From Marsupella aquatica (taxonomy: Eukaryota; Plantae; Marchantiophyta), in contig OZ316893.1 in the NCBI GenBank assembly GCA_973895155.1, positions 18,197,836 to 18,261,835 of the forward strand: a stretch of DNA of 64,000 bases, in the 5' to 3' direction. Numbering within the stretch: position 1 is the stretch's first letter; every line of letters starts with the position of its first letter. Shown here piece after piece: positions 4,936 to 39,784 of the stretch. Made by a program: the position numbers and the translations under genes. The notes beneath the pieces are model-generated. The model saw nothing but the letters and a program-made list of their open reading frames with translations. It made no database searches and was not told the origin of the DNA.

Positions 4936-7513
4936 ATCGTCGTTAGGCCTGGTACCAGCTTTGAAGTCGAGTCAACTAGGCATGCGTAACTTGACGTTCT
5001 GAATTGGAGGTGTGAGATCTATATGTGCCCCCAAGAATGAAGTGCAGTGAAGGAGGTTGAGTTCAGGATTGAGTTTGCAAGGCAAGTACGGGATTGGTTC
5101 AAGTCCAATCTGCCGTCGCAATCTGGAGTGAGCCGGGCTCAGGTTCAGGATTGAGCTTGCATGGCAAGCACGGGGCTTGCAGGACAAGCACGTCACAATC
5201 TGGAGGAGACAGCCTTCGGCCCTAGTGTTCGGATCAAGTGTTCTCAGTGAACTATTGTGCACATCTTTGAATCTAATTGAGTTTTCCTCTCAGGCCTCAT
5301 TTCTCTCATGGATGTGTGTGTGTGTGAGGCAATCTGAGTGTATGATGGGACTAGCAGCGCCACTGAGAGGTGTACAGGGTGCATTGAAGCGGGCTGGGTG
5401 AGGACTGTCATAGCTCTGATTGCTAAGAGTGGAATGGCAGAGTGGTGGGGCAATGGCTTAGAAGTCCCTAAGCCGGGAATCAGTCAGGAGTCACTGGTTT
5501 ATGGGTACATTCCGGCGGCAGAATAGAAACATACCTATGACAGTAAGCATACGTATAGACCTATGCGCACCGTAGCGCTAGGCCCTGTGTGTACGGGCCC
5601 GATATGAAGACCCCTTCTCACCAGAACTATCATGAGCGCAGATCTGATCCCCAACCTTGGTTCCTTGGGATTGAGCTTGGGTGATGTGTGATAGAGTCTT
5701 GCTATGATAGTCTGGTGTTAAGGGCATAAATTGGTGTTTACCGGCCTTCACAACATCCCTTCGTGATCCTCAGGTACAAGGAGATGGTTTTGGCACCCTA
5801 AGTGACATTTTTGGTGTTAAGAGCCATGTCAATCGCGTGACACCCATTGTTGCAGCAATTTGAAGGGTACTGTACAAACGCAAGAATGGAGACATCATCC
5901 AAAACCCACAACATCCGACCGCAACACTTTGAGTCCATGCAGATTTCTCCTGAGAAATCTTTCTTTGTGGGGAGGAACCTCAGTGAAGAGGAACGAGAAA
6001 CCTACCGACGGCTTCTGACAAAGTATCAGGATGTGTTTGCCTGGTCTCATCAGGACCTTACCGGCATCCCAACTATATATGGGGAACATCGGATTGATCT
6101 GAAAGAGGGGGATATACCAATGTGACAGCGATAGTACCACCTGAACCCCAAATATTTGCTAAAAGTCAAAGAAGAGATCGACAAGTTGTTGGAAGTCGGA
6201 TTCATTTTTCCAGTGCCACATAGCGAATGGGTATCACCCATTGTGATCATCCCAAAGAAGGTTGGACCAGATGGCGTAGTCAAAATACGGGTGTGCCAAG
6301 ATTTCAGGAAGTTAAATGAGGCCACCAAGAAGGATTACTACCCCCTTCCCTTCACCGATATAATACTGGATCACGTGGCTGGGCACGAGTGCTACAGTCT
6401 ACTAGATGGCATGTCCGGATACCACCAAGTCTGGATTAGGGAGGAGGATCAGATACTCACCATCTTCACCACCGACTGGGGCACGTTCGCGTTCGGACAA
6501 ATGCCCTTTGGGCTGTGCAACGCACCGGGGACTTTTCAAAGAATCATGATGGATGTCTTTTGGGATTTCCCCCATTACTTTTTGGAGATTTTCATCGATG
6601 ACTTTGCAGTGTTTGGGGCGATGATTCAACATGAGGAACATTTGGAGTTAACGTTTGGCCGATGTAGAGAGAGGAACCTCAAGTTGAATCCCCACAAGTG
6701 CTACTTTGGAGTTTCCAGTGGGATACTCCTTGGCCATCAAGTTTCCAAGGAGGGGATAGCCGTGGATTTGGATAAGATAGCAGTAATACTCTCAATCAGA
6801 GAACCCACCATGGTGACTGACGTGCGCGCCTTCCTGGGGATGGTCGGGTATTACCACAGATTCGTTGAAGGATATGGATATTCAAAGATAGCCCTGCCTC
6901 TCACTGAGCTCCTCAAGAAAAACATTTTGTTCACCTTTGAGGCACGGCAGAAGGCTGCATTTGAGGAGTTAAAACTACGGATGTGCAAAGCTCCAATATT
7001 GTGCGCTCCAAAATTTGATAGAGAATTCCATGTGATAGGAGATGCTTCCGGGTTTTGCATCGGCATCATTCTGTGGCAGTACGGAGACAATAAGGAAGAG
7101 AAGCCCATCTACTATACAAGCAGGCAGATGAGCAGCAAAGAGAGAAACTACACTACCAAAGACCAAGAATGCCTCCCGATAGTTTTTGCATGCCGGAAAT
7201 TCCGACACTACCTCCTAGGAAATGAGTGCGTATTCTATACCGATCACGATGCAATCAAGTATCTAGTCAACAAGACTTGTCAAGACAAGTAGCACGATGG
7301 GTTATGCTATTACAAGAATTCCAATATAGCATACTAGTCAAACTAGGCAAGAATAACGCCAACGCAGACTATTTATCCAGGCTCAAGGAAGAAGGCGACC
7401 TGAGCCCCCTTCCGGACCAGTTTCCAGACAAAAACCTGTTTGCCATTGTTAAACACTGATTCCTCCTTGCAATTAGCGGATAATTAACTTCCTTCTACCC
7501 ATTCGCCTTCCTA

Positions 7514-7834
7514 TTAACTGATTAACCGTCTGACTATAGGGTAATCTGACAAATTGTTCTCATTCTCCAAATCTGTGATTTTAGCTAAATGTTCTTCAAT
7601 ATCCACTTCTTCTTTCCACTTCTTAGGTACAATAGACTCAGTTAAGACCAATCCTTCTCGGTACACAATCTCTATGAACCCACACCATTCACGGTAAGTA
7701 AAGATACAAATTGGAATACTCTCTTCCTTCAATCAACGAGTAATCAAGTGTGAACCAATTGAACAAATCCACAATTCAATCGGTCTGAGTCTAATTAGCA
7801 AGTAATTGTCCCTACCCTTGTTGTTAGGATTCAT
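7514..7834 (-). pseudogene. LTR small ORFb homologue (one premature TGA)
   Basis: ELWICSIGSHLI..IPIC..TYREWCGFIEIVYREGLVL..VPKKWK aligns with 28874-29194. Confidence 0.75.
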
Positions 7835-7897: not shown

Positions 7898-8116
7898 TCA
7901 ATTTCGTGTGTAACGGGGTAATTCAAGAAAAGCTATTCGTAATAAAAATACCAATTCAACAATTACTCTGTTATGTTGGAGGTGTATGACAACCAGATTG
8001 TCATCCTCAAAACACACAAACTCCAACCAGACTCTATTGCTTACGAGTTGTCTGTTTGCTTGATTCCTTAAGGTATTATACCTTAAAGTCCTCACTCTGA
8101 GTTAGTTAATCCTCAT
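7898..8116 (-). pseudogene. LTR small ORFa homologue (one premature stop)
   Basis: RTLR..NRQLVSNRVWLEFVCFEDDNLVVIHLQH aligns with 17065-17259. Confidence 0.7.
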
Positions 8117-8648
8117 TCATCCTTGCAGTCGACGATTGACCGACTTAACATTTCCTTTATAAGTTCTTATCAAGGTTGTGGTTTCAATAGTCACGACTTC
8201 CTTTCTAAGTCCTGCCTATCGAATTGACTCACTTAACCCTCTATTTACTTCTCAGATTTCTCAATTTTGTCCATTCACTTTTTGTTCATACTCTCGTATT
8301 CAATCTCAATCTCTTTTCATATCCTTCACTAGCAATTGTTACTCATCCATGAACAAAGTCTCGTGGTTGCAATAATAACTTCTTTACTTCTTAACATCAA
8401 AATTCTACTCACAGTTGAGTAGGGAACACTTCTACAAACCACTGACCATCTCAAGGGAAGTCTGACTCTGCCTTTTGATCAGATTACCTATTGCAAAAAT
8501 TGACACCTTGCCTTTCCTTATTGCTAGATTAAATACTATCATTCTGCAGGGTCTATTAGTTTCCAACTATTCTGCTATACTACCAAAATTGTCATCTAAA
8601 CGACTGATCAAACATAACCGCTTAGTCGGTTATTAAACTGCTGTTCAT

Positions 8649-8774
8649 GGTTACTAAACTGCTACCCGTGTTTATGCAACTGGTACCCGCGATTACTCAA
8701 CTGCTACGCGCGGTTACTCAACTACTACTCGTGGTTACTCAATTGCTACCCGCGATTACTCAACTGTTAACTAG
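8649..8774. repeat. ~6 x 21-bp tandem repeat (GRTTACTCAACTGCTACCCGC) within LTR C'
   Basis: Read directly from the sequence. Confidence 0.85.
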
Positions 8775-15600: not shown

Positions 15601-15869
15601 CGGCGGGGTCGGGTTTGACTCTGGTGCTATGACCACGTCTTCTTCCATCGGGATAGAAGGGTCCCGGGATACTTGCTTATTATGATTGGGTCCCGAACTC
15701 TCGGCTTTGGCTGAGGTCGTGGTGGCCTTGCTTCCTGAGGGGTTGATGGTAGGCATAATGGCTTCAGCTCCCTGCTTAGCTGGAGCTGCATTTTGCGTGT
15801 CCTTCTGGGTGAGACTTTGAGCGGGTTGCACCTTAGTTGAGGGGTTAGAGGAACTCGGGTTGAGGTTGC
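12695..15869 (-). pseudogene. pol: pol of element B (RT, RNase H, integrase)
   Basis: RT WVSPIVIVPKK, FLDGYSGYNQI, MPFGLCNA. Integrase GGHF..WWPTL..CDLCQ, WGIDYIGP, SDRGTHF, YHPKANG. Confidence 0.92.
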
Positions 15870-15990
15870 TGTAAACGATAAAAATTACACCGGCAATATT
15901 ATAGTTTTTCTTTAGGTTTAGAAGTGTCAACTAGAGGTCAACCAAGAGTATTTAGGAAGTAGTAAGCAAGGACCAGCGGTTATTCATTTT

Positions 15991-16602
15991 GTGGAGATGA
16001 CAGAAAGGCTGGAAGTAGGGGAGGTGACGATCATCTCGATTAACAGTCGTGTAGGAGTCAAGTTCTGCTATGAAGGCTGCGATGGCCTACTAGCAGATGG
16101 CAGAATATGTGCCTTAGGCACAAGAGCTCGACAGAGAAGGCAAGGGGGGGCGAATATAGGAACCCCCGTTAGCAGGAATCGGTTAGCTCATGAGTGTAAG
16201 TCGCTAGGAGAAGGAGTGCCTATGTTCATGTTCACTATTCGGATCAAAGAAGGAAGCTGTCGTGTATGGGATGCGGCGGGGCAACAATTGTTCGGAGTGA
16301 AGGGCGAAGAGTTCTGCCAACGATTCACCACCGGCGAGGCCATCGAAGAACTCTGTAGAAAGGTCATGCGGAAGAAATGGAATCTGCTGCTAAGACGGGA
16401 TAACAGCCACGATCAGCGGATTACGTGGCGATTAATCACCGCCGAACAAGTAATCGTGGCCGGCGAACCGAGCAACCCCAAGGAAGATGACAGAAGTCAG
16501 GAGGTCGAGGCACATATGGCAAGATTAACAATCGGGAGTCCGGAAGCTTCCGGATCAGGCGCAACCGAAGGGAATCGAGGAGGCCGTTGCACAGTTCAGT
16601 AA
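15991..16602 (+). CDS. LTR-encoded RPA70 C-terminal-like OB-fold/zinc-ribbon protein (first ATG at 15997)
   Basis: Intact ~200-aa ORF. Pattern FCYEGC-x9-C...HEC..PMFMFTIRI...VWDAAGQQLFGVKGEEF...KKWNLLL resembles RPA1 DBD-C (YxAC..C..C..YxLxxxIxD..AExLLG). Confidence 0.65.
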   Translation: MEMTERLEVGEVTIISINSRVGVKFCYEGCDGLLADGRICALGTRARQRRQGGANIGTPVSRNRLAHECKSLGEGVPMFMFTIRIKEGSCRVWDAAGQQLFGVKGEEFCQRFTTGEAIEELCRKVMRKKWNLLLRRDNSHDQRITWRLITAEQVIVAGEPSNPKEDDRSQEVEAHMARLTIGSPEASGSGATEGNRGGRCTVQ

Positions 16603-16927
16603 CCAGGAAGACAAAACTTCTTGACATAGTAATCAGCAGTTCTTGGCTTCCACTCATCGTTCTGGTAGGCATTAGTTAGCGTTCTTGATGAACGAGCAAA
16701 GGAGATCAAAGAGGAGGCGCGAGTCGTCCAACTGTAATCGGCGCACCCCAAGAAGTCGTAGAGGCCTCTGGCAGAGACGGACACGAGGCATAGGTATTTA
16801 GAGGCTGTGGAGCGCTAGGCGCTCTGTCACTTTTTGCTAGAAGTCTGGGGCAAGGTAGGGCTCCGCTCACCTTAGGAATGCCAGCAATTTTGTAATAGTG
16901 TCCCTACTCAGTTGAGTAGTCTTTGAG

Positions 16928-16933
16928 TATAAA
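16928..16933 (+). promoter_or_regulatory. Putative LTR TATA box (TATAAA)
   Basis: Lies between the OB-fold ORF and ORFa. Present in both LTRs. Confidence 0.5.
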
Positions 16934-17064
16934 GAGAGAGTTTGGAATGAATGCAACAGAGTGAAGTCCGCACTTGAGCAGTGAAGGAGAACGTCGAATC
17001 AGAGAGAGAGAGAGAAGGAATTTGCCTTATGCAGCAAGTCGTTACTCTTTAATCGCAACGATGA

Positions 17065-17259
17065 ATGAATATCGTCTCATTGCAAACCAGAACCTTACGG
17101 GCCAGTGCCTCAAGGTATAGGTTGAACAGACAGCTAGTGAGAAGCGGTGTCTGGTTGGAGATGGTGTGTTTTGAAGGCGATACACTGGTCGTCATACACC
17201 TCCATCATACAAGGGTAAACGTGATACTGGGGTACTTGCTTAGGGTAACCCTGTCATAG
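17065..17259 (+). CDS. LTR small ORFa (64 aa)
   Basis: Open in both LTRs. Protein-level similarity to 7898-8116(-). Confidence 0.6.
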   Translation: MNIVSLQTRTLRASASRYRLNRQLVRSGVWLEMVCFEGDTLVVIHLHHTRVNVILGYLLRVTLS

Positions 17260-17344
17260 TCACCCACACAATCCGAAAATCAATTGCCAGGCAGGCTGAT
17301 TCAAAGGATAGCCGGACTTAATCAGGTCACGGCTACTAAAAACC

Positions 17345-17667
17345 ATGAACGCAGACAGCAGTGACGACAAGTCTTGCTCCTTGATTACCTTAAGATCATT
17401 GGAACTGTGGATCTGTTCTATCGGCACCCATCTTATTTCCCGTCAGTCACTATACGAGAACATTCCGATTTGCTTGATCACTTACCGCGAGTGGTGTGGG
17501 TTCATTGAGATTGTGTATAGAGAGGGGTTATAGTGTTGGTCGAGGCTAAAGTACCTAAGAAGTGGAAGACGGAACTCAACATTCAAGAGCACTTGGTCGG
17601 ATTCACTTACAGGGACTGTGTCGAGATAAAAGGAGTGCCGCCTCTCGAAGGTCGGTTAATCATTTAA
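17345..17667 (+). pseudogene. LTR small ORFb, broken in this copy by a 2-bp insertion at ~17530
   Basis: GGTTATAGTG here versus GGTTAGTG in the 3' LTR, where the ORF is open. Confidence 0.65.
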
Positions 17668-17737
17668 ACAAGATTACTGAGGAGAAGGTAGTTAAACGGC
17701 CATTAATTGCAAGGTCGAAGTTGGCGTTTAACATTTT

Positions 17738-17755
17738 TGGTGACCATACTGGGGA
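17738..17755 (+). promoter_or_regulatory. Primer-binding site TGGTGACCATACTGGGGA (tRNA-Arg-like)
   Basis: TGG-initiated, 4 nt after the LTR end. The tRNA identity is inferred from resemblance to Ogre/Tat-type PBS. Confidence 0.7.
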
Positions 17756-18656: not shown

Positions 18657-21600
18657 ATGGGCAAGACGCCCATCAATCCCAACGAAGGGGAAATGGCAGA
18701 GGAGTTTGAACCTTTCCAAGAAAGCAGACTCAAACTTGAGGTCGAAGAACAAATCGAGACTTCAAGGGCTCAAGATAAGGTCGAAGAACCCTGGAAGAAG
18801 CCATGGAACGACTTAAAACCCACCAAGGAGCTGGCATTAGTTCAAGATCGGCTCCTACCAGAAGGGTTAAAATACCCATGTTCAAGGGAGCACCTGATGA
18901 AGATGCCGATACCCACTTAGCACGTTTCGAAGAAATGCTCAGAGCTAACCACGAACAGAACGACACAGCCCGATTAGAGCTATTTCCCAGCTCACTAGAC
19001 AAGGAGGCTTTTGTATGGTACACTCAATACCCAGCTGACCATTTCAAAACTTGGCCTGAGTTTTCAAAAGAATTCTTAGATCATTACAGAAGGGCTAAGG
19101 AAGAATCTGATTTGTATAGCATTCTGCAAAACATGACTCAGAAGAAAGGAGAACCAGTACAGAACTATATTGGACGGTTAAAGGTAACAATGAGGCGATT
19201 AACTAACAAACCGTCCGACGGGCAACGAATTAGCTGGATGAGAAAGGCTGTAAAGGGAAGTCTAGTCACAGTGGTAGAACAAAATCCCACTTCTAATGCT
19301 GATGAATACGAGAAAAGATTAATACGGCTAGAAGGCATTACTCAAATGCTTAACCAGGAAAAGAACGAGAGCAGTAAGGATGAAGAGAGGGTTAACCGGA
19401 AAACAGAACCTTCTAAGGTAGAAGTCAAGGAAAACCGAGAGCGAGGCGAGCTTAGTACTCGTAAATTCTGTGAAATACATGAGGCCTGGACATACTACTC
19501 AGGAATGCAACCAGAATCCTTTTAAAAAGAAACCTAGCCTAGGTGTAAATCAGGTAGGAACAAGCAAACAAGATGGGGATAGGATGGAGAGTAGTCAGGG
19601 ATATTACAATCCGGATCGTAATGCAAACCGAAGGCCCTATAAGGATGGTGGTACTAAATACCCACCGATTTGCTATTACTGACGACTAATTGGCCACATC
19701 AGGGGGCCCGATTGTGAATTATGGATGAAGCACATGAAAGAAAAAGAAGAAATAGCGGGGAAAGCCCCAGCACCTGTGAATATTGTGCAGGTGTCAACAT
19801 ATGTGGTGACAAGATCTCAAGGGCAGCCAGAGAACTCAACTCAAACCAATTCCCCGGAGACGGAGGGGGGATTCGATTGGAGCCAAATGGATGCAACCAC
19901 CCGAGAAATGGTGGATGAAATTCGCCACAAACAGCGGAACGAGACTTTGCCACGACCTGAACGATTAATGCGTTCAGAACCTTACGCAGAGACAGATACG
20001 GAAATTCTAGAGGAGGGAGTGACGATGGGGGGATTCGATCAAGAAACGGGACAACTTCCACGAGACGAAGAACCACCGAATAACCCTGCCGAAGCAAACC
20101 AGCGAATAGTGGATAAGCTAGTGCAACTCATCGTGAAGACCAGAGTCGACATCACTGTCGAGGAACTGTTCCAGCTAGCACCATAGTGCAAGGAAGCAGT
20201 AATGAGACGGTTGGGGGGCAGAATTAGTCCTACCACATTACCCGGAGTACCACTGTACCAAGCTGGGAAGATTCCCCTAATCGACAAAGGAGCCGTAGTA
20301 CAGATCAGCGTAAGGGGCATCAAACTAAAGAACGTATTGCTGGATGGAGGGTCAGCCGTAAACCTCATGAGTGAGCCCTAAACCCTAAACCCTAAACCCT
20401 AAACTCTTACCAGCCCCTTTTAATTTAATAATGGCCGATCAAAGCAGCTGTCACCCACTGGGTTACGTGCCAGACTTACCAATGCTGATTTCAAGCATCA
20501 AGTACAATTTAGGAGTGGTAGTTTTGAGAGAAGCAGATTCCACCCGAGGACAACCCATGTTGTTAGGACGACCTTGGCTAAGACAGGCCAAAGTAAAACA
20601 ACATTGGGGGGAAGAGAAGGATTGTATAAAAATAGAACATGGAGGAGAGACTTTCAAGATCAGAACCAAGGCTATCGAGGACGGTGTACCACCTATGGCT
20701 AGAGTCTGTACCTTGAACTGGGCAGAGGGGTTGAATGAGGATGAAGAAGAGACCTATTTAAAATGCCGTCCAGACTTAGTCCCAATTTCAGATATGGAAA
20801 TAGTCAAGCTCAACGAGATGCAAGGAATGACCAAAGAAAAAATGGATCATGATCTACGAAACGATCTGTTTAAACACATAGACCCGCAAGGCATTCAGGA
20901 GTGCTCATTAAAGGAGGAAGAAGCACAGACCACCTTGCAGGATCTAGCAGAGAAGGTGGTGGGATGGAGTGCCACCGAAGAAGAGCACATTCAGAAGGTC
21001 GATTTGAGTGACACTGAACGACCACGAGAAGTAAAGATAGGGAAACACCTTTCCCCCGAGCTCAAAGAGGAACTTGTTACCCTACTCACCGAATTCCGAG
21101 ATGTTTTTGCCTGGGATTACACGGAGTTAAAGGGAGTTCCAGAGTCAATTGGCGTACATCGAATCTGACTCGTACCAGGATCAGTACCGGTGCAGACACA
21201 ACGATATAGGATGAACCCCAACTATGCGGAAAAGGTAAAAGAAGAAATCCAAAGGCTCCTTGATGCCAAATTCATTGAACCTGTTAAGCGTTATACGTGG
21301 CTATCCCCGATAGTCGTAGTACCTAAGAAAAATGGGAAGTTAAGAGTCTGCATTGATTTCAGAAAATGAAATGCAGCGACCATAAAAGACCCTTTTCCGG
21401 TACCCTTTCTAGAAGCAGTTCTGGATGTGGTAGCAGGAAAGTCAACTTACTCATTTTTAGATGGGTACAGCGGGTACAGTCAGGTCCGGTTAGCCACAGA
21501 AGCAAGGGAGCTGACCACTTTCATTACAGAATGGGGCGCTTTCCAGTGTCTCGTATTACCCTTTGGATTATGCAATGGGCCTAGTACATTCCAGCGATTA

Positions 21601-23961
21601 ATGATGATGTTATTTCATGAGTATTTGAATCAGTTTATGCAAATCTTCCTAGATGACTTCACCATATACGGAGAGGAAGAGCAACATATAGGTCATCTCA
21701 GATTATGCCTCTTAAGATGTAGGGAAGGGGGAGTCAGCCTGAACCCTGATAAGTGCACCTTCTTTGTACCATCGGGCAAGATATTAGGACACATAGTTTG
21801 TAAACAGGGCTTGTTAGTAGACCCAGATAAGATAAAAATCATTAAAGAGATGCCAGTTCCCAATAGTGCAACTCAAGTCAGAAGGTTCCTGGGAAGTGGA
21901 GGTTTCTATCGTCGTTACATCAAGAGTTACTCCCAAATCAGTGCCCCGTTGGCACGATTAACGGGTAACCATCAAATGTTCACTTGGGACGACGACTATC
22001 AGAAAGCGTTTGAAGAAATCAAGGACCGGTTGTGCCATGCACCCATACTCAAGGAGCCAGATTGGAAGAGGGAGTTCCATCTACATACAGATGCTTCTCT
22101 GGTGGCGGTGGGGGCAGTGTTAGCACAGAAGGGAGAACAAGGTATCGATTTACCAGTATACTATGCCAGTAGACTGTTAAACATGCATGAAAGGAACTAC
22201 ACCACGACTGAGAGGGAAGCATTAGCCATGATATTTGCAGTAAAGAAATTTAGGCATTATTTACTTGGGAATCGATTCATATTCTATGTAGATCATAATG
22301 CCTTGGTCAACTTAGTAAACAAACCACAGCTGTCGGGCCGAATTGCAAGATGGATTTTGTTATTAGCTGAGTTTGATTACACCATCATTTATAAACCCGG
22401 GAAAACCCATGTCATACCCGATTATTTGAGTAGACTCGAATCAGGAGAGACAGGCAAGGAAGAAGACGATCAATTACCGGATATGGAGCTATTTCAAGAC
22501 GCCAAGGAAAGGCATCCTGTAAATCTAGTGACCTTGGATGATGAACCAGCATTAGAAAGGTATTTACGCACAACGGTATTCCCCGAGGGGTTGTCCAGTA
22601 AGGAAAGGAAGGTCTACGCCTATAAGGCAAGACCCTACACCTTGATCAACCACGTGCTTTATTACCAGGGGCCCGATGACATACTACGTAGAGTAGTTCC
22701 GGAGGAAGAACGGCCAGAAGCCTTAATCGCGGCACATGAAGGACTAGGAGGGGGACATTTCGGCATCGAGATCACCCTGAGGAAGATTCTTCAGCAAGGA
22801 CGTTGGTGGGCAACTGTCCATAAAGACACTCGGGAGTTTGTAAAAATGTGCGACCTGTGTCAGCGTACAGGACCTATAAAGGAAAACATGGAGTTCAGGC
22901 CTATAATCGCCCCTTATATTTTTCAGAAATGGGGACTAGATTTCATAGGACCCATCACTCCATCTTCCAGATATAGTCAGAACCAGTATATTTTAGCAGC
23001 AACAGAGTATACCACAAAATGGGTGGAAGCAGTCGCAACTCGGGAGAACACTGCCCGAGTAACAGCCAAGTTCTTGTACCAGAACATCATCACGAGATAC
23101 GGATTACCAGGTGAGCTAGTGAGCGATCAAGGTTCACATTTTCTGAACAAGGTTATCCAGGAACTGACGGATAATTACCATATAAGCCATCGGTTTTCGA
23201 CTCCCTATTACCCTCAGTGTAACGGGCAAGCGGAGTCAACAAACAAAGTCTTACTCAACGTTTTACGGAAAGTGGTTAACGAACAGCAAAACGATTGGGA
23301 CGTTCAGCTGCCGGCGGCAGTATGGGCATTCCGCACGACATATAAGGTAACCACGGGCCACACCCCTTTTCAATTAATGTTTGGAGTTGAGGCCCGTATG
23401 CCGACAGACTATGAGTTACCTAGTTTGCAAATCGCAGCGAGATACGACATAAATCAGAACCCGTGTTTAACTAGACAGTTAAAAGCACTATTGGAGGTTA
23501 CCGAAACCCGGAGAAGGGCCGAAGAACAATTAGAGTATGTACAAGGACAACGCAAGCAATGAATAGACGATCAACGGGAGGTAACCACGTTCACGGAGGG
23601 GGAATTAGTACCGTGGTGCCGAAAGCAGGCACGAATAAAAAAAGGAAAGTTGAGACTTAAATGGGAAGGACCCTTTACCATCCACAAGGCATGGGGAAAC
23701 GGAACCTTCAAAATTACCAGCCAGGATGGGAGCGAGCAACAGCGGGTGAACGGGAATAAGATGAAGTCGTACCACGTAAGGAACGACGTGTACTTACGAG
23801 AAGTAGAGGATACGGTTAACGACTACCCAGGGGAAAGCGAAGTCGGCAACGACTCCGATACGGTACCGGCGCTCAACGAGGACGATGACAGCTATCAACT
23901 GCCGACAACACCACCTAACAAGAATCAAGCGGATGGAGAAGGGTACGGAGCTACCCACTAG
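18657..23961 (+). pseudogene. gag-pol: gag-pol of element C with several stops and frameshifts
   Basis: Retrotransposon Gag (IPMFKG..LFPSSL..AFVWY), zinc-knuckle remnants, protease LLDGGSAVNLM, RT FLDDF, RNase H TDAS, integrase WGLDFIGP/SDQGSHF, GPF motif. No chromodomain or extra RNase H is recognisable. Confidence 0.95.
20376..20403. repeat. Interstitial telomeric repeat (CCCTAAA)4 inside the protease
   Basis: Four perfect Arabidopsis-type repeats between NLMSE and LLPAPF. Confidence 0.92.
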
Positions 23962-23962
23962 A

Positions 23963-26900
23963 ATGGTAGCCTGTATCAGCGTGACCCCCGATCAAGCATC
24001 TACGGAAGCCACCGAAGGGGCACTCACCGCCAAGAACAAGGAACGACCCTTAGCACACGCAAAGAAGCTAGTCACGACCACCACACGTGACACACTACGA
24101 CGAGAAGAAAGCACCAATGAACAAGGACGAGAACTAACGATCAAGGGGTACCCGTTAGAGGATTACGTGAACGGAACCATTCCATCAAACAAACCAACGG
24201 AATCAGGTCAAATCAAGTCAGTGGTTCTAGCAGAGGAGGACCTATCTGAAATCTTTCAGATCCACGATTGGAAGCACAAATTACCCAAAGGCCAGGAAGA
24301 GAGGAGGAGAAGGTTTCCTTATAGAGTAGTAATCGTAGGATGTACACACGGACCCTTTTCCACATGGATTGCAGATTGGATTTTGATAGGACCCAACTCG
24401 ATACCCTGTATTGAGGACTACTCCATGGGAAAATTACATGTTATACTAGAAGTTCAGGATACACTAGAATCCAAAGGGCGAGCACCATCATCCGCAAAAG
24501 AACTGTTAAACCAAAAACCCTATTTCTGACTGGCAAGGAGATTACGAGAGAACCCCGAGTGGAGTGGCTATCAGCGTGAGGTGAAATTCGAATGGTCGAG
24601 GGTCGGTAATAGGCATTACACATTACCGGTGGGCATGAAGACTTTGAAGCTGAAACGATCAAACGAGTTTGAGGACGATAAACCGAGGAAGCGCATTACT
24701 ATTAGCGAACTACTCAAAACCCCGGTGATGGAGGAGACACTAGCCCCCACACACACAGAGGGAGAAGGGCCGACAACAGCAGAGGGCATGGAGCTGGAAG
24801 TTTCCGAGTCAGCGGAAAGGGAAAGGAGCAACCCCGAAGATGATCAAGAGATCGTGAGTCAGGGACCCCGTCAGGGACCTTCAGCCGCTGACCATCTCTC
24901 GGAAACTACAGCCAAAAGGGAAGGGCAGGGGCCCGCCGAGGAGCCAACCCTAGAGACACAAACCGAATCAGTAATCGAGGCACCAACGGAGCAAGCGGCC
25001 GAGCAGACAGAAGAACAACAGGGAAACCAGCTGAACGAACTTCAACGAGAAGGGAGACGGAAGCTGACCATGGCAAAATTGTTAGCCAACCCGGATCCCA
25101 TGGAAGCGATCACGGCGGTCACCACAGCGATAATTGAGGAAACGACTCCTTCTAGGACCAAGAGGAACCGCAAGGGGACAGCCAAAACGATTAAACTTGA
25201 GCCGCCAACGATGAGGGAGGTGCGATCCGTAAGGGGAAAGAGCAAAATAGTCGAATACGAGGAGGAAGAACCGGAAGAATCCGACAGTGAGGAAGAAGAA
25301 GAACCAGCAGAAGAAGCAAAAAGTAGGACCGGGAAGGCGACGCGCGCCGCAAAGGCGAGTCCAGGGGAAACAAGTCATGTTTTGAAATTTGAGAGAATGG
25401 GGCCACAAATATTGCAAACTATGCGCGGACAAGCACACAGGAAATTTCTACAGACACAAGGATTGGAGAAATTCGTGAAACTAAAGTGGAATCAAACCAC
25501 GAAGCTACAAGCAGAGGACTACAACGAGTTCATCACCACGTGGAAACCCACCAAAAATCAGGGAATATGTAGGGGCCAAGTCATTAAGACGAATCCTCGG
25601 AAGCTTCAGGAGCTTTTCAAACTGCCAAAGCAAGGAGCGGAGATCAAGAAACGGATGGGGAAAACTTGGCAACCTGCCACATTTCCACAACACAAGGACG
25701 TAGACGACAACAGGGGCTATCCGACCAAGCATTGCACGAATGAGAAAATCAAGGAAAGGCTCAAATTCGTAACCCATGCATTACATTGGAAGAGGCCCAC
25801 ATCAGAATATCCTCGATTTATGATTAAAATTGTAGAGGAGGGAAACGGGAAGCAAAAGGATTGGTCAGCCTTTTTCCACGAAGGGTTTCATGTAGCCATC
25901 AAGCGAGCTAAACGATTAATCAGCAGTAAAAGCAACCTGCCAGTAGAGATCGAGTTGCATCTCCAAGTGCTAATCGAGAGTCAACTTACAGGGGAAGACG
26001 AGGGAAAAACGGAATCAGCAGCTACCATTTACCAACCAACGAGGAGTGAGGGAGCCAAGAAGCAGGAGGGCACCCTACCAGAAGAGGAAGCAGCCAACAA
26101 AGAGCAAGAGGGGGACGCATCACCAGTGCGCACCACCAGGAGGAAAGAAACCAATCCAACACCAACCAAGAAGGAGTCAGAATCAGAGGGTCAGGAACCA
26201 GCGGAGGAAGACAAAATGCGAGCAGAAACCAAGGCTTATAGGACAGCGCCCATTGATGACGACGACCTCAAGTACACCCTCTCAACCGTAAAAGAAGGTG
26301 ATGAACAACAATTATGGGAGAAGCTGGGGATCGAAGTATTGAAAGAGAAGATCAGCACAGTGCAAAAAGATAGCATCTTTATAGTCATGATCGGACAAAT
26401 CGCCAGTCAATTAGCCATTTATCAAGGAATAACGAGTTCGCTAGTACACTTGGAGTGGAACAAGCGAGAAGAAGAAATCGCCGAGGACTTAGCCGGGAAG
26501 GAGGAGGCAGATAAATGGGCAGTGGAGGCCGAGGAGACCATCAAGGAGTTACTAAATCGTAACAAAGAGCTAATAGCAGATAAAGGATCGACTGACAACC
26601 ATAGGAAGAGGCTGGAGGCATGAGGAGGCAGCCATGCAGGAATTGGCTGATTACCTAGGAATAGAAGGGTTACGTCCAGGGGGACTAACGACACATTACC
26701 AGGAGGTTGTCATGGCCATCGGAGCAGCCATAGCCACAGTCAAAGCAGATAGCCAAAAGATCAATTCACAGCTAAGGGAGGATAACGAGAAACTCAAGGA
26801 AATAGAAGAATTGCAATCGCAACTCAAGGATGAAGCAGCAAAGCAACGCAGAACAGCCGGTGAATGGGCAGTGGAACGCCAGAGGGTGGAGGAATTGAAG

Positions 26901-27314
26901 AAAAAGCTCCAGGGTCTGGAAACCCAACTCCAGCAAACCACCGCAGTCAAAGGGGACCCCACGAAGGATCTGAACAAACAAGCCCTACTGGAGGAGCAAC
27001 TGGGGAAGCTCGGAAGAAAACACTATGAAGTATTGGAGAATTGGAGAATCACAGAAGATGACTATAAGCGGAAAATTGCTGAGTTAGAAGCCACGGTGAA
27101 GCTACAGGGCACTGGAGAGGAGAGTATCACTGAACAGACCAAGGAACTCGAGCAGTTGAGGACAGAGAACGATCAGCTTTCGCAAGAACTGGAAGATAAG
27201 GAACGATCAATTTTGGATTTAAAATCCGAAGTGAGGAAGCTGAAGGCACAGAGTAGAGTTCCGATAACTCCAACCAGGATGACCAATGTTAGCGAGGGTA
27301 GGGGAGTGAAGTAG
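23963..27314 (+). pseudogene. Accessory ORF 3' of pol (~1115 codons): unknown N-domain, acidic linker, PMD/Transposase_32-like domain, coiled coil
   Basis: 23885-24529 and 24581-26623 are in the same frame, separated by one TGA. One frameshift leads to 26634-27314. Motif FLQTQGLEKFVKLKW..EFI..CRG..LFKLP. Confidence 0.8.
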
Positions 27315-27378
27315 ACCGGTGACGACTGGTCCCCAACGTATACCAAGCATAACGGATATCGAGGACGAATCCGTAGGT

Positions 27379-27391
27379 AAGCAAAGGAGAA
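27379..27391 (+). promoter_or_regulatory. Polypurine tract AAGCAAAGGAGAA
   Basis: Immediately precedes the TG of the 3' LTR. Confidence 0.8.
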
Positions 27392-27512
27392 TGTAAACGA
27401 TAAAAATTACACCGGCGATATTATAGTTTTTCTTTAGGTTTAGAAGTGTCAACTAGAGGTCAACCAAGAGTATTTAGGAAGTAGTAAGCAAGGACCAGCG
27501 GTTATTCATTTT

Positions 27513-28123
27513 GTGGAGATGACAGAAAGGCTGGAAGTAGGGGAGGCGACGATCATCTCGATTAACGGTCGTGTAGGAGTCGAGTTCTGCTATGAAGGCT
27601 GCGATGGCCTACTAGCAGATGGCAGAGTATGTGCCTTAGGCACAAGAGCTCGACAGAGAAGGCAAGGGGGGGCGAATATAGGAACCCCCGTTAGCAGGAA
27701 TCGGTTAGCTCATGAGTGTAAGTCGCAGGAGAAGGAGTGCCTATGTTCATGTTCACTATTCGGATCAAAGAAGGAAGCTGTCGTGTATGGAATGCGGCGG
27801 GGCAACAATTGTTCGGAATGAAGGGCGAAGAGTTCCGCCAACGATTCACCACCGGCGAGGCCATCGAAGAACTCTGTAGAAAGGTCATGCGGAAGAAATG
27901 GAATCTGCTGCTAAGACGGGATAACAGCCACGATCAGCGGATTACGTGGCGATTAATCACCGCCGAACAAGTAATTGTGGCCGGCGAACCGAGCAACCCC
28001 AAGGAAGATGACAGAAGTCAGGAGGTCGAGGCACATATGGCAAGATTAACAATCGGGAGTCCGGAAGCTTCCGGATCAGGCGCAACCGAAGGGAATCGAG
28101 GAGGCCGTTGCACAGTTCAGTAA
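27513..28123 (+). pseudogene. Second copy of the RPA70C-like ORF with a 1-bp deletion at ~27727
   Basis: TCGCAGG here versus TCGCTAGG in the 5' LTR. Confidence 0.7.
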
Positions 28124-28593
28124 CCAGGAAGACAAAACTTCTTGACATAGTAATCAGCAGTTCTTGGCTTCCACTCATCGTTCTGGTAGGCATTAGTTAG
28201 CATTCTTGATGAACGAGCGAAGGAGATCAAAGAGGAGGCGCGAGTCGTCCAACTATAATCGGCGCACCCCAAGAAGTCGTAGAGGCCTCTGGCAGAGACG
28301 GACACGAGGCATAGGTATTTAGAGGCTCTGGAGCGCTAGGCGCTCTGTCACTTTTTGCTAGAAGTCTGGGGCAAGGTAGGGCTCCGCTCACCTTAGGAAT
28401 GCCAGCAATTTTGTAATAGTGTCCCTACTCAGTTGAGTAGTCTTTGAGTATAAAGAGAGAGTTTGGAATGAATGCAACAGAGTGAAGTCCGCAATTGAGC
28501 AGTGAAGGAGAACGTCGAATCAGAGAGAGAGAGAGAGAGAGAGAAGGAATTTGCCTTATGCAGCAAGTCGTTACTCGTTAATCGCAACGATGA

Positions 28594-28788
28594 ATGAATA
28601 TCGTCTCATTGCGAACCAGAACCTTACGGGCCAGTGCCTCAAGGTATAGGTTGAACAGACAGCTAGTGAGAAGCGGTGTCTGGTTGGAGATAGTGTGTTT
28701 TGAAGGCGATACACTGGTCGTCATACACCTCCATCATACAAGGGTAAACGTGATACTGGGGTACTTGCTTAGGGTAACCCTGTCATAG
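28594..28788 (+). CDS. LTR small ORFa (64 aa), 3' LTR copy
   Basis: Near-identical to 17065-17259. Confidence 0.6.
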   Translation: MNIVSLRTRTLRASASRYRLNRQLVRSGVWLEIVCFEGDTLVVIHLHHTRVNVILGYLLRVTLS

Positions 28789-28873
28789 TCACCCACACAA
28801 TCCGAAAATCAATTGCCAGGCAGGCTGATTCAAAGGACAGCCGGACTTAATCAGGTCATGGCTACTAAAAACC

Positions 28874-29194
28874 ATGAACGCAGACAGCAGTGACGACAAG
28901 TCTTGCTCCTTGATTACCTTAAGATCATTGGAACTATGGATCTGTTCTATCGGCACCCATCTTATTTCCTGTCAGTCACTATACGAGAACATTCCGATTT
29001 GCTTGATCACTTACCGCGAGTGGTGTGGGTTCATTGAGATTGTGTATAGAGAGGGGTTAGTGCTGGTCGAGGCTGAAGTACCTAAGAAGTGGAAGACGGA
29101 ACTCGACATTCAAGAGCACTTGGTCGGATTCACTTACGGGGACTGTGTCGAGATAGAAGGAGTGCCGCCTCTCAAAGGTCGGTTAATCGTTTAA
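28874..29194 (+). CDS. LTR small ORFb (106 aa), intact copy
   Basis: Conserved with 7514-7834(-). All differences in the core motif are synonymous. Confidence 0.7.
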   Translation: MNADSSDDKSCSLITLRSLELWICSIGTHLISCQSLYENIPICLITYREWCGFIEIVYREGLVLVEAEVPKKWKTELDIQEHLVGFTYGDCVEIEGVPPLKGRLIV

Positions 29195-31699
29195 ACGAGA
29201 TTACTGAGGAGAAGGTAGTTAAACGGCCATTAATTGCAAGGTCGAAGTTGGCGTTTAACAGTTGCACGTGTCTTTGTGATGCCTAGCCAGGAATCACTAG
29301 GCCAGTTTAAATAGTAAAATCAGTAGTGTACCCTGGAAACACATTAGTATAGTAACAAAAAACTGGAAAATATAAACAATTAAGGGTGACTATGGAACCC
29401 GAGCCGAGGCCGAAAGTAAGGACATTGGGAGAGGGAACACGATTAGGGTTAGGGCGCACTAAGTACCGACGGCTATGGGTAACTAACGGGAAGGAAGACC
29501 AGGCAGGAGGGGGTAAGGATTGATTGCAAGGAATGGTGGCTCATTTGCAAGCACGAACTAAGCAAACGACTACGAGAGGCCAACTACTATTACCTGCTCA
29601 GGCAAGCACTTGGGGTGGAAGCAGATACGGACAATCAACTCAAGAAGGGTATGAGCAACGTCAATCAAGCTGCTCATTTTTTGGGATGCCTGTTAGAACG
29701 GGCAACTGAGTACATTGGGACCTACAAGGACAAAGAATCGGAGAGAGTCGCTCGAGAACGGCAGGAGCTTGCTCGACTGTGGGAGCTGCAGAAGTCTGCC
29801 TTCTTAGGAGGAAAACTCATCACGGCTGAATTCCTGTGGACACCTACTGGCGACGAACTCGATAATCTTCTGTTTTGTGAGAATAGAATAGTTGGCATTT
29901 GGGAAGCCATCAACCACTGCAACGACACACTGGGAGTTGAAGGGTAGCACAGAGGGGTGGACGAAGGCAACCGTGCTAGGAGAAACATCCACGGCAGCCG
30001 CTATGAAGTGGAAAGGGAACATCAATGAAGAGGCCACCCCTGCAAAAAGAAGGAGGTCGGCGGCACCCAGGAAGCCAACCAAGCAAGGAAGTAGGAGGCA
30101 GGGAGAAGCCGCAAAAGAGGAGGTCGACCCCATCAATGCCGTTCCAACAAGGGATGACACTTGGAAAGGCTGGGCGGCGACCCTCCCCGAGGAAGTGCAA
30201 TTACATTTTGCATGTGAAGAAGATGCATGCTTTACGGCTATGCAGACTCAGAAATACCAGGGCTTCATGGCCGGATCCGGCTTGGAAGCCTTTGTGAAAT
30301 TACCATGGCTGAAGCCGGAGGTGCCGGATTCAGACTTATTAGAATTTGTGGGATCTTGGGAGCCCAAGACCAATTCCACAAGGGTGTATGGGAAGGAATT
30401 CTATCTCACTCCCCGGATGATTGCCGAAGTGTTTGGCTTGCCGATGGGCAATAAGACCAAAGTAGATACCCGGAAGACCTTGCCAAACAAGGAGTTCCGG
30501 TTGTTTCCAAGGCCATCAACAAAGAATGGCTTCTTTCGAAACACCTGCACCAACTCACACATCGGAGAAATGATTGATTTCTTGCGGGTAACCATGCACT
30601 GCAACTTGCCAAGGGCAGAGATCGGCAAGGCACAGGTCTACCTGGCGGAGAGGCCAGACCCAAGCCGGGACTACAACGGGTACCTCCTCACCCAACTGAA
30701 GAAGATCTTGAAGGAGGAACAACAGGCGATCGGCATGGGAAGCGTGTCCCGACTTGGCTATCACATGCCACTGTTGTGCCGGTATGCCCAAAGTTAGATC
30801 TTTGCCCCGGTACTTCCACTACAGGCAAGGGCACTAGAGGAAGTTCTAGAACAGAGGCCAGAAACAAAGAACCAAACCAGCCCGACAGTCCTACAATCAA
30901 GCAGGTGTTTAGGCTGAGGACAGAGGACTTGCCGATGCAGCAACCAAGCATGCAGAATCTGCTGAAATTGCTGGAGAAGGAAAAGAGAACGGCAACGACA
31001 ACGGCAATGACACAGGTACAGGACACTCCTTCAGAGGTCGGCCTAAGCCGACTCATGAAGGAAAACCCCTTTACCGGAGCCAAGGAAAGAAGGAGGCCGG
31101 AACACGAGCCGGGGGTTCAAATGTATGTAGGAGCCTCGAGTCCCGAAGCCAAGGGAAAGTAGCCTAAAGCTCCTGTTTCCGGTAAGTGGAGGGAGAAGAC
31201 AGCCTGGAAGCCGGAGGAGGAACTAGGACCTGTGAGCTATGATCGGCAGGAAGTCGTGTTCACAGCAAGACCAGGAGAGCAGCGAGGGGAGTCGTTAGTC
31301 CAAGTTGGGGAGGAGGTGGTGGAGGACTACGGCAATGATGACTCCGACTACGGGTCGGACCATCATGTCCCAGGAATAAGGACCTGTGGCCGCTTCATCC
31401 CCACACTTCCAAAAGTAGTTCGAGGGGACCCCACCCAGCAGAGCAGCCCCAAGTCTCCCCCACCAGATGTCGCTCCCCCGAGCTTTGACAGAATAAAGCA
31501 GATGGCACAGGAGTTCCAGGAGCAACTCAGGGAGGAAGAGAAGGCAGCCCTGGCTAGGGAGAAAGATTTACCAGGGGAAGAATGGCTAGAGGACATCAGG
31601 CGGCTTGCAGAAAAACAAAGCAGCCCTCCAGCCAGGATAGAAGAAATCCGCAAGGCGGCTTGGGAACAAAGTATCAGGCCTGCAAAATATCAGGCCTTG

Positions 31700-32055
31700 T
31701 TGAGGAGGAGAAGGAAGACACCAAGAAGGTAGCAATTTCATTCTTCCAATCTCAGATGAAAGTGCATGACCCTATCATTTTGCAAGCATATAGGATTGGG
31801 CAAAAGAAGGGGGACCTTCCACGTCCAATCTTGGTGAAGTTTGCAGTTGAATCCGAGAAAGCTAGAGTGATGGCTAACAGGAGCATGCTTAAAGGGCTAA
31901 GGATTTGGTTGGATGATGATCTGACTCCCACACAAGTCCAAGCAAGGAAAATTGAGCTTGAGAAGGTGAGGGTAGCCAAAGACCAAGGATTGGTAGCCTA
32001 CTTGCGCAATGGACAAGCTGTTGTTACCAATAAGAAGAGAGTTGTTTCTAAATGA
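31700..32055 (+). pseudogene. C-terminal part of LINE ORF1
   Basis: RIGQKKGDLPRPILVKF...IWLDDDLT is typical of L1-transposase-type ORF1 of LINEs. Confidence 0.75.
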
Positions 32056-32067
32056 TGGATTGGGACC

Positions 32068-35000
32068 TTGAGAGTCATGGCATGGAATGTTTCAGGACTT
32101 TCCATAGAAACAGCAATTGGAGGGGAACCTTTGTTTGAGAATTTTGACATCTTGCTTTTCACGGAGACTTGGGAATATGAGGGAAATGCTCTACCTAGCA
32201 TTAAAGGCTTTACTTGCATACAATCCATCTTCAATGAGAAGAAGACCACACGGGGAAGAGGGTTTGGAGGCATTGCTGTCTACACCAAGAATCAACTTCA
32301 ACACATCACCTCTATTGAACATGAAGATCCCAGCAAGCAGTTCATGGTGGTGAGACTTCATACCAGAGGTACTCCATCATTTCTGATTGTCACCTACTTT
32401 GCTCCCCTTAATATGAATGTCTATAAGATGGGAATTGCTGATGCACATTATCCATTTCATAGGTTAATCCAAGTCATTCATGATATATCACCACTAGGGG
32501 AGACATGGATAGTGGGGGACTTTAATGCCAGGGTATCTAATGAACAATTTACTGAAAGTGAGGACTTAGGAACTTTACCTTGGTCATCATGTAGTGAAGA
32601 GATACCTTGGGTGAGAGAGGCTCTTGATACCAGAACAAATGACATGACACGTCACTTTTTGCATTTGGGAGCTTCTTGTAATCTAAGAATATTGAATGGG
32701 CTTGAGAGATTTCCCCAATCATCTGGTTACACTTTTAGATCTAAACAAGGATGTAGTACCATTGATTACCTTCTTGCCTCACCTACCTCTGCCACTAGAG
32801 TGGTTGACTTTCAAATACTTGATCAACAACCAGAGTCTTCACACTTGCCTTTGTTGTTCCATCTTGACCTGACCACAATCCCAAACAAAGTGCATAGAAA
32901 GCCAGTACCCAAACCTCTGTTTCTAGACCCTGATAGAGAAGTCATCTTCAAAGCCAACTTTGAACATCTTCTCCATACCCTGGATGATCAGATTGAGCTC
33001 TCAGAAGTCATAGGACAAGCAGCAGCCTCTACTTTCTCCACCAAACCCCCTAGAAAGCAAAACATGAAGGCTTGGTTTGACGAGGATTGTGCTAGAGCAA
33101 GGATGCAAGCAAGATCACATTCAGGGGAAAAGAGACTTTTGGCATTCACTATGTACAAGAACTTCATCAAACACAAGAAGAGGTGCTTCTTGAAGAGTCA
33201 TCAACAATCACTATGTGAGGAGTTCATCAAACATCCAAAACGTTTTTGGGAGAGAATGCAATCAGGCAAGACTACTCCCCCCTTGGATCACCAGGACCTG
33301 GTAACCTATGTCACATCCTTGTATTTCTTTCCAGATGCTAGTGGCATGCCTTTGCCCCTTGGGGACACCATTCAGTTTACAGAGAGGGAGGTGAAGGTGC
33401 ATCTTTCCCACATGCAACATGGGAAAGCTAAAGATCTGTTGGGCCTGAACTTGGAGCTTCTTTTGTGGGGAGGACCCTCTTTACTAACAAACTTGGTGCA
33501 TGAGCTGAATCAAGCAATGGCTTTAGGTTTACCTAAAGCTTGGATGACCAGAAGAGTGGTGCCTATCTTCAAGGCAGGCAACAAGGACGATGTGCACAAC
33601 TACAGAACCATCATGGTAGGCAATACTTTTGCTAAAGTTTTGGGAGGACTACTTGAAGCCAGATTAAGCTCTTGGTTGGAGAGTGAGATGAAAAGGGCAC
33701 CTTCACAAGCAGGTTTTAGGAGAGAATTCAGCACTATGGATCACATTCTCTGCTTGAGGGTGTTGTGTGAAAAGGCCAAATCTCCACATAAACCATTATT
33801 TTGCTTGTTTGTGGACTTCTCCAAGGCCTTTGACAAAGTTTCCCGATCCAAGCTTTGGGATAGGATGGTGGAGTTGGAAGTGCCTGAAGAGCTCAGGTTG
33901 GCTGTTTCTAAATTGTACCAAGAAGTGCGCATCAAACTTTCAAAGGAAACCTCTGAAGAAATCTGGAGCACTCTTGGGGTGATCCAAGGTTGTCCTCTCT
34001 CACCAACTCTCTTTGGCATCTTCATTGATCAGCTACACAACATTTTGGAGGAGCATGGTGGAGTTGGCACTCAATTGGGTAGGTTTGTCCTCCAACTTCT
34101 TATATTTGCAGATGATGTGGTCCTACTTGCTCATGCTCAAGAAGCTTTGCAAAGACATCTCAATGCCTTGGAGGAGTTTTGTCAAGCAACAGGGATGGTA
34201 GTCAACCTCAAGAAGACCAAGTGTTTGGGCATTGGCACACGACAAAATCCAGAGCTCTACTTCCAAGGGAATCTGGTGGAATTTGTGAGGACCTACAAAT
34301 ACCTTGGGGTGGAGTTCTCTCAAAACTTGAGTTGGGCCTCATGTGTAAAATCTAGGGCTGCCAATGGGTACAGAGCTTTTTATGCATTCATGAACAAATG
34401 CAAAAGAGCTGGTCTACACACTTGGAGGTTAAGGAAACATCTCTTTGGAGCTTTGGTGAAACCAGTCATTCTTTATGGAGCACCAATTTGGGGAGCAGGT
34501 GTGTCTAAATCTGGGTGGCAACAGATTGAGGGGCTGCAAAAGCTATTTCTTGAGATGGAGCTTGGGATCAAGTCACAAACCCCATATGCACTTACACTTG
34601 CAGAGGCAGGCTTGTTTCCTTTGGAGGTGGAGGCACTCTTCCACACACTCAAATACATCATGCGTGTAAGAGAGTTGGAGGAAAACATATTTCCTTTTCA
34701 TGCCTTGCGCTCATCTTCAGCTAAAGGGTGGTATGCAGATGTGTGCAGGTGGGCCCATGCTTGGGATTTTCCTGAACATGAATGGCCAACACACCCAACC
34801 AAGCTAAGAGCAAAACTTGAGCAAAAGGCTTTGCACAAACTTTGGCATGAACCTAGCCCACGGCAGCAATACTACATGAGAGATGTGAACCCCATGAAGA
34901 AATATCGAGAACAAGAATACTTATCTAGCACTATCTCAGTACAACTTAGACAACTTATTGCTCAGTATAGACTAAAGCTCACACCACCTTGAAGTAGAAC

Positions 35001-35290
35001 AAGGGAGATGGAAGGATATTGACAGGAAAAAGAGGGTTTGTCAACTATGTGATAGCTCTAGTATAGAGAATGAATATCATGTATTCATTGCTTGCAAGTT
35101 TTATGAGGGGGTTAGGATGGCATCTCAAATCTTGGTGAAAGATTTGTATGCATTGTTTGGTCTGCCCCCTCAACAACTTGGAAGATATATCTTTGCGGTG
35201 GATAGGGAAAGGAGAATAGGTTTGGAAAATCTTTCAGGGCTCTCTAGGTCCATAGGGCTCTCTAGGTCCATAGTTTCTTTGAGGACATAG
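32068..35290 (+). CDS. LINE ORF2 (APE endonuclease, RT, C-terminal CCHC), with one frameshift at ~34975
   Basis: WNVSGL, TETW, GDFNA, IDY, QAGFR, QGCPLSP, FADD, YKYLG. After the shift: SSHHLEVEQGRW..RVCQLC..ENEYHVFIAC. Confidence 0.92.
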
Positions 35291-39520: not shown

Positions 39521-39784
39521 TCCTTTTAAACCATTTTATATTTTTATATATATATGAGCCACGAAAACCCCATGGCACGGGGAACAAGCAGTGTCACAGC
39601 AGTATACATAATGAATGCCTCGGTACAAGAGGACCCAAACAGCACAGCAGCGCTACCAATGGGATCAAAGATGTACACAGTCCACTGTAGCCCATAGGCT
39701 CAGTTTTTAATCCAAGATATCCAGTGTCAGTACCCCCCCCCCCGCTGAAGCAACAGGCAGCCCATCTCCAATCCTACATCACTG

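Follow-up and report, generated by a model that had tools for sequence, protein, structure and literature searches.

A predicted RPA70 C-domain-like OB-fold gene within the LTR of a liverwort Gypsy retrotransposon

Helitrons and Helentrons carry RPA-like cargo (PMC4067079, in excerpt), and the first-pass annotation had cited RPA70-like genes as established cargo of plant Helitrons. Here we describe a retrotransposon, element C, from a 64-kb stretch of Marsupella aquatica DNA (the window), in which an ORF inside the LTR encodes a protein predicted to resemble DBD-C, the C-domain of RPA70. As with the RPA70-like genes of plant Helitrons and Helentrons, an RPA-related OB protein would serve as the extra gene of a transposon. 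The two settings differ in that Helitrons and Helentrons are rolling-circle DNA transposons, with a mite example that has DBD-A and DBD-B (PMC4067079, in excerpt), whereas element C is a retrotransposon whose gene lies inside the LTR and has, by prediction, DBD-C only. With the LTR ORF, a transposon would have recruited RPA independently once more, following the Helitrons.

Coding genes within an LTR are familiar from animal retroviruses. In HIV, nef overlaps U3. The sag gene of MMTV is an ORF of the 3' LTR, according to the title of a reference in PMC11569226. Element C resembles both in that its LTR carries a coding gene, which therefore occurs in two copies, the 3' one being the copy expected to be read. 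It differs from them in that sag and nef belong to animal retroviruses, and their unrelated products have immune roles. The LTRs of plants are regarded as non-coding (PMC13192763, in excerpt), and the literature searched yielded no example of a sag-like gene within the LTR of a plant LTR retrotransposon.

A second group of comparable proteins consists of HIV Rev, MMTV Rem, HTLV Rex and CERV of C. elegans Cer1, which are small and have a basic region and an export pattern, as does the product of the LTR ORF (PMC10674744, PMC10309623, in excerpt). They also share with it an element that carries several downstream ORFs, and CERV comes from a nematode Gypsy element, Cer1 (PMC10309623, in excerpt). 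Elements with such ORFs are the setting in which Rev, Rem and CERV act (PMC10309623, PMC10674744, in excerpt). Unlike the LTR ORF protein, none of the four is described as an OB fold or as LTR-encoded in the available sections of PMC10674744 and PMC10309623.

In plants, the conserved accessory ORFs of non-chromovirus Gypsy elements, such as Athila ORF1, plant mobile domain, Transposase_28 and orchid AlkB (PMC6317226, PMC7264820, PMC12786077, in excerpt), offer a third parallel, and element C is like these elements in having two extra ORFs between pol and the 3' LTR. The extra ORFs described in the available sections of these three sources are, unlike the LTR ORF, internal. For most of the extra ORFs in plant retrotransposons, neither origin nor function is known (PMC7264820); for the LTR ORF the structural ancestor is clear, selection has left a signal and the motif can be tested, and its plant group includes a tractable model. 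The available part of the domain table of the REXdb survey (PMC6317226, supplement 4; ORFs of at least 250 codons) lists no RPA or OB domain, and the available main text of that survey names no liverworts. The main text of the plant extra-ORF review PMC7264820 mentions neither RPA nor within-LTR ORFs, and the accessible portions of PMC11728184, PMC12786077, PMC12964672, PMC12885004 and PMC13192763 add none. A literature search that mostly covered papers outside subscription turned up no description of a retrotransposon with an RPA-like or OB-fold gene in its LTR. Each ingredient has precedent, and the combination, as far as searched, has none.

Self-comparison of the window revealed a 1.87-kb direct repeat with 97.8% identity, the LTR pair of element C, a 13.4-kb Gypsy element with a 5-bp target duplication at both ends (GTTGC, left 15865..15869 and right 29261-29265; this and all other features of element C are on the plus strand). 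Both LTRs begin with TG and end with CA; the 5' LTR spans 1864 bp (15870..17733) and the 3' LTR 1869 bp (27392..29260), and they differ by 29 substitutions and three indels. A PBS-like sequence beginning TGG, recognised from sequence only, lies 4 nt past the 5' LTR (17738..17755), and a polypurine tract (27373..27391) precedes the 3' LTR. The internal region holds gag-pol in several pieces, followed by two extra sense ORFs: gag (Retrotrans_gag in Pfam, 18803..19525) is the first piece of the broken gag-pol, and pol (20389..23958), with the order RT-RNaseH-integrase, contains stops and has its nearest protein in the leafy liverwort Calypogeia fissa (71%). Extra ORF 1 (662 aa, 24635..26623) has no Pfam match and is common to three other window elements, and extra ORF 2 (226 aa, 26634..27314) is coiled-coil-like. 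The TG...CA LTR pair, 5-bp target duplication, PBS, polypurine tract and gag followed by RT-RNaseH-integrase identify a Ty3/Gypsy element; a Pfam scan showed no second RNase H between RNase H and integrase. Because gag-pol is broken and the 3' copy of the LTR ORF is frameshifted, this insertion is likely no longer an active source. Immediately upstream of the 3' LTR, ~27316-27345 appears by eye partly complementary to the PBS and could pair the RNA ends.

The first-pass annotation had reported an ORF of ~200 aa starting ~125 bp into both LTRs, intact in the 5' LTR and carrying a 1-bp deletion in the 3' LTR, and this description proved accurate. The ORF of the 5' LTR encodes 201 aa (15997..16602) from an ATG at 15997, 127 bp into the LTR; position 15991, where it had been placed before, is a GTG two codons 5' of this ATG, and the frame is closed upstream at 15921. 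The 3' copy (27519..28123) lacks the base matching T16205, a deletion near 27727 that splits it into two frames. The motifs singled out earlier, YEGC..C..HEC, MFTIRI, WDAAGQQLFG and KKWNLLL, are all present. The ORF lies wholly within both LTRs, as in an LTR-encoded gene of the sag type, and an ORF of at least 201 codons from ATG arose by chance in 3 of 2000 random LTR-like sequences.

The two copies of the ORF differ by eight substitutions, seven of them at codon positions 1-2, and such changes point to decay after insertion. At six of the eight, public sequencing runs show the 3'-LTR letter, and by this comparison the open 5'-LTR copy is itself decaying. Neutral decay of this kind is what would be expected of a passenger, a piece of RPA1 from the host or a Helitron that ended up in the LTR and is copied along without function, and the same reading is favoured by the retention of core plus tail in only 24 of 70 family sequences. 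Comparison with a diverged subfamily argues strongly the other way. Five public runs match the LTR or part of it; four were compared, and three of these contain a diverged variant that aligns gap-free over 16108-16461 (354 nt), with 57 differences in X1 and X2 and with pieces in X4, and much of its flanks lies below 80% identity. Between X2 and the window over 16194-16461, 20 of the 31 listed differences (of 38) fall at third codon positions (p 4e-4). Classified by hand, these 31 comprise 19 synonymous and 12 non-synonymous changes, which gives the core a dN/dS of 0.12-0.21 depending on transition bias (31 of 38 differences, one pairwise comparison), or 0.10-0.18 (p<=2e-4) when two changes private to the window LTR are left out. 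The basic loop alone, with six changes of each kind, has a dN/dS of 0.21-0.31, which is not significant on its own.

Among the 12 indel rows listed, of 16, the four within the ORF form two +3 pairs, and seven of the eight outside it are not multiples of three. Since a dN/dS of ~0.1-0.2 without gaps against a diverged subfamily indicates a selected gene, this sequence comparison shows the LTR ORF to be under purifying selection between two subfamilies, with the estimate coming from one pairwise comparison, for which the assembled contigs are possibly from another species. A dN/dS near 1, which the first-pass annotation had named, along with frequent ORF disruption among young copies, as refuting evidence, was not seen in this one pairwise comparison (0.10-0.21). 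The low ratio and the frame-keeping indels between subfamilies both speak against a passenger, as does the deeply diverged family, which still keeps the cysteines, the histidine and the tail motif; moreover, no Rep-helicase domain, the Helitron hallmark, and no other Helitron domain occurs among the 29 window ORFs scanned. The passenger reading is largely refuted already and we regard it as very improbable, and a real, selected OB-fold gene within the LTR is very probable.

Relatives of the LTR ORF protein were found by sequence profile. The Pfam scan of 29 window ORFs gave no match for it, none of 137 candidates from a word-indexed homologue search was useful, and no useful PDB match was obtained by sequence. 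Ypt7 alone appeared in a PDB profile search, at E 0.3 or worse, and was discarded because its similarity to a short motif looked accidental, and weak PAS matches (E 0.005-0.01) were rejected because of the predicted fold. A full HMMER scan of 1.84 billion representatives at E<=0.001 returned 72 matches, from which seven repeat proteins with many short stretches (P0132, P0153, P0156, P0158, P0182, P0187 and P0189; two judged by sequence, five from the table) were left out, leaving 65 plausible relatives. Among 30 matches that were looked up, four belong to Calypogeia fissa and four to Riccia sorocarpa, and all named relatives are from liverworts; a separate profile search gave seven matches, of which the four named are Riccia proteins. 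Homologues include CAM6124012.1, CAM6096102.1, CAM6089831.1 and CAM6107815.1 of Calypogeia fissa and KAL3697841.1 of Riccia sorocarpa. P0174 was counted as Riccia through its 91% identity to P0184 and not by look-up. Most relatives are 80-300 aa long. The four Calypogeia fissa members are mutually 30-59% identical, and this divergence, together with the presence of core plus tail in just over a third of the family, is what one would expect if many transposon copies differ in age. A tree of the family, with 43 rows of at least 95 aa, is unrooted and without RPA1 rows and names no donor, and no related locus was found in metagenome or viral contigs. Within the 64-kb window, the family profile finds just the two LTR copies of element C.

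Several relatives are annotated as 'hypothetical' host genes in liverwort gene sets and may be transposon-borne. Riccia-type models P0145, P0147, P0161, P0177, P0181, P0205 and P0206 have coiled-coil or RING-like parts fused upstream of the OB domain; their junctions differ, a methionine mostly stands just before the OB domain, and P0184 is stand-alone. Such models may have arisen by wrongly joining transposon ORFs, or they may represent a fusion that was domesticated. We do not claim that their upstream parts correspond to the extra ORFs of element C, as a profile built from four such parts had no match in the window, and the coiled-coil match (E 3e-4) is possibly compositional.

An AlphaFold2 model of aa 1-158, built from 62 sequences (the window protein, 60 of the 65 kept relatives and one cluster member), reached pLDDT 93.2 and pTM 0.84; the fold matches of a single-sequence model (pLDDT 38.7) were meaningless and were set aside. 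The core domain, aa 4-151 (16006..16449), is predicted to form an OB fold with a zinc-ribbon-type insertion, like that of RPA70 DBD-C. Foldseek at E<=0.001 gave five matches, all of them RPA-containing entries or RPA70 C-domain structures, with 4gop_C best (E 7.1e-5) and a TMq of 0.65 to 1l1o_C, the human RPA trimerisation core. VIA-align placed human RPA70C first (chain 458-603; Z 11.8, rmsd 3.7 over 132 residues), and its top matches were RPA70 C-domains (Z 11.8, 11.6 and 11.4; rmsd 3.7-4.0 over 129-133 residues). In the next ranks stood Ustilago RPA (11.6), Teb1 OB-C (10.8), yeast RPA (9.4) and CTC1 (9.0), and plain SSB and PriB folds scored under 8. The ESM Atlas put Rep_fac-A_C first at 0.88, which serves only as a lead, with a recognition score of 1946 against the 2300 mark; a second ESM Atlas query gave no usable match, and viral structures gave none to the model at E<=0.001. 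The proposed check by AlphaFold and Foldseek accordingly matched an OB fold with the RPA70 C-domain on top, and the earlier assignment to the RPA1 DBD-C (Rep_fac-A_C) fold is borne out by the model, in which RPA70 DBD-C ranks above all other solved structures.

The accompanying claim of a captured ssDNA-binding protein holds in part: the predicted DBD-C fold agrees with it, but the protein is a single, diverged domain below the Pfam cut-off. The PF08646 gathering score of 28.5 bits was not reached (three of 34 relatives score 12-15 bits, E 0.024-0.14), identity to RPA70C is 8-12%, and tandem DBD-F, A and B domains are absent upstream of the core, given the 201-aa ORF and the closed upstream frame. 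With one domain, such low identity and neither DBD-A nor DBD-B, it is not an RPA70 subunit; it is instead predicted to be a lone, very diverged RPA70 DBD-C-like domain, and capture from host RPA1 is plausible on the model. It shares with RPA70 DBD-C (PF08646; 1l1o_C, 8rk2_A, 4gop_C) the same insertion and helical region in the predicted OB fold, and differs in being a single domain of ~150 aa with CCHC and an export-type tail.

In RPA70 the insertion carries four cysteines as zinc ligands. The putative ligands of the LTR ORF protein, C28, C38, H65 and C67, surround a basic 26-residue insert (16078..16197); CCHC occurs in 40 of the 54 aligned rows that fill all four columns, the insert C38-H65 is net positive in 54 of 54 rows, and these four residues would bind zinc. 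Y25-G27-C28, D34-G35, C38-L40-G41, R45, H65, C67, F79, W91, G95, L98-G100 and W128 are conserved in the family. Telomeric OB domains are sequence-preferring. Their position near RPA in structural rank (Teb1 OB-C and CTC1) and the invariably basic insert could fit another selected role, for example that of a transactivator of the Tat, Bel1 or VANC kind which recognises a specific sequence in the LTR or its RNA. No activation domain is evident, however, and the C-terminal export motif is unexpected for a chromatin-bound activator, and we consider this role decidedly unlikely.

The tail contains, after an acidic linker of variable length, a motif resembling a class-1a nuclear export signal (aa 170-179, 16504..16533), with the pattern hydrophobic-x3-hydrophobic-x2-hydrophobic-x-hydrophobic, which fits the CRM1 consensus in PMC10674744 (in excerpt). 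The first-pass annotation had overlooked this motif, which opens the way to an RNA-export role. The pattern occurs in 16 of 24 near-full-length tails against 2.47 expected, with a maximum of 8 in 2000 shuffles and of 10 in a second run of 500; eight tails are without it. Outside the Riccia-type group it is found in 10 of 15 tails against 0.9 expected. Eleven other spacings were compared in that subset: ten occur in no more than 2 of 15 tails, and one, overlapping the same motif, in 8 of 15. When all 24 tails are counted, helix-type spacings come to 7-9 owing to the Riccia coiled coil. Loose ends of the diverged variant, read by hand, keep the four hydrophobic positions though 13 of 30 nt differ. 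The motif was noticed ahead of testing, and because family members are related and not independent the shuffles overstate its significance, so these counts speak for conservation and not for activity. We regard aa 170-179 as a likely nuclear export signal, and the motif could also be a displaced trimerisation or oligomerisation helix.

In a decoy role, a DBD-C mimic would bind RPA32, RPA14 or another RPA partner and remove it from the nucleus, which would weaken silencing or change repair at the site of integration. Plant RPA2 has a role in silencing. DBD-C, the only RPA domain kept here, mediates subunit interaction in the RPA trimerisation core (PMC8210275, in excerpt), and viruses are known to equip decoys with an export signal (PMC10674744, in excerpt). 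Against this, the model, which ends at 158, shows no helix directly following the last strand (aa 152-158), the RPA70C alignment stops at human residue 603, with the candidate tail helix coming only after the variable linker, and identity to RPA70C is low. Such a decoy is unlikely.

The only TATAAA of the LTR (16928..16933) lies 326 bp downstream of the ORF stop, and the ORF would be located in U3 if this is the promoter. Lying upstream of it, the ORF would be read from the 3' LTR, like MMTV sag, and the copy normally read would be the broken one in element C, a point that the first-pass annotation had missed. It would be transcribed only as the 3' terminus of element RNA, and a spliced or subgenomic message would be needed. 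A pyrimidine-rich AG at 15914-15915, with no ATG from there to 15997, is a candidate splice acceptor, and the AT-rich stretch just before it could instead be a second promoter.

Taken together, the single-strand-binding fold, the basic insert, the export motif and the several downstream ORFs suggest a resemblance to Rev, Rem and CERV. Our preferred reading, held tentatively and at somewhat less than even chances for the mechanism as a whole, is a Rev-like adaptor that exports unspliced element RNA. A lone RPA70C-type zinc-ribbon OB domain, presumably derived from an RPA70 C-domain, would bind single-stranded nucleic acid, with RNA as the supposed ligand, and the C-terminal signal, with exportin-1 as the supposed partner, would carry the unspliced RNA of the element out of the nucleus. 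Element C has several downstream sense ORFs, which would need subgenomic RNAs. Against an export adaptor, the best structural matches are all ssDNA-binding proteins and not RNA binders, and an export signal would suit an ssDNA chaperone in the cytoplasm, or a decoy for host factors, just as well.

The chaperone, which was the main idea of the first-pass annotation and is the chief rival here, would coat minus- or plus-strand DNA while strands are transferred across the 1.9-kb LTR, or would protect cDNA, and the tail motif, compatible with cytoplasmic retention, would keep it in the cytoplasm close to the particles. It draws on the fact that every top structural match of the model binds ssDNA, and Helitron-borne RPA has been proposed to bind ssDNA in transposition (PMC4067079, in excerpt). 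However, ssDNA binding by RPA is dominated by DBD-A and DBD-B, which are absent here, and DBD-C is a weak binder (PMC8210275, in excerpt); the ORF is unfused to gag or pol, with no evident particle route; and a relative whose LTR has the same 3' part is without the ORF. We find the chaperone doubtful. Unspliced-RNA export or cDNA protection by plant retrotransposons with several downstream ORFs becomes directly testable with this gene. Returning to the export adaptor, its fullest version, in which liverwort Gypsy elements took an RPA70 C-domain into the LTR, combined it with an export signal and have retained it from a time before the Riccia/Calypogeia split, as a plant counterpart of Rev made from a DNA-replication protein, is rather doubtful taken as a whole.

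The relative just mentioned lies on the minus strand (12695-7441) inside the pol of another element and shares the 3' part of the LTR at 74-78%, with matches at 7963-8056 and 7587-7723 and, weakly, at 7441-7528. The upstream part of its LTR differs, contains a short tandem array (8627-8769) and is without an OB ORF. The gene is thus not universal in the clade, which counts against an essential role.

Elsewhere in the window, an extra ORF without a Pfam match recurs at 24635-26623, 30003-30797, 51196-52512, 59395-59982 and 11424-11134 with ~25% identity, usually next to a coiled-coil ORF; by eye it presumably recalls Athila ORF1 or plant mobile domain proteins. One element has only the extra and coiled-coil ORFs, with copies at 29272-37737 and 51003-55517 (88%) and a fragment at 1-377, and an L1-like LINE at ~31672-35415 interrupts the first of these copies. 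On the minus strand at 38727-50293, two further L1-like LINE copies (zinc-knuckle ORF1, endonuclease, RT, zf-RVT) lie among Gypsy pol fragments.
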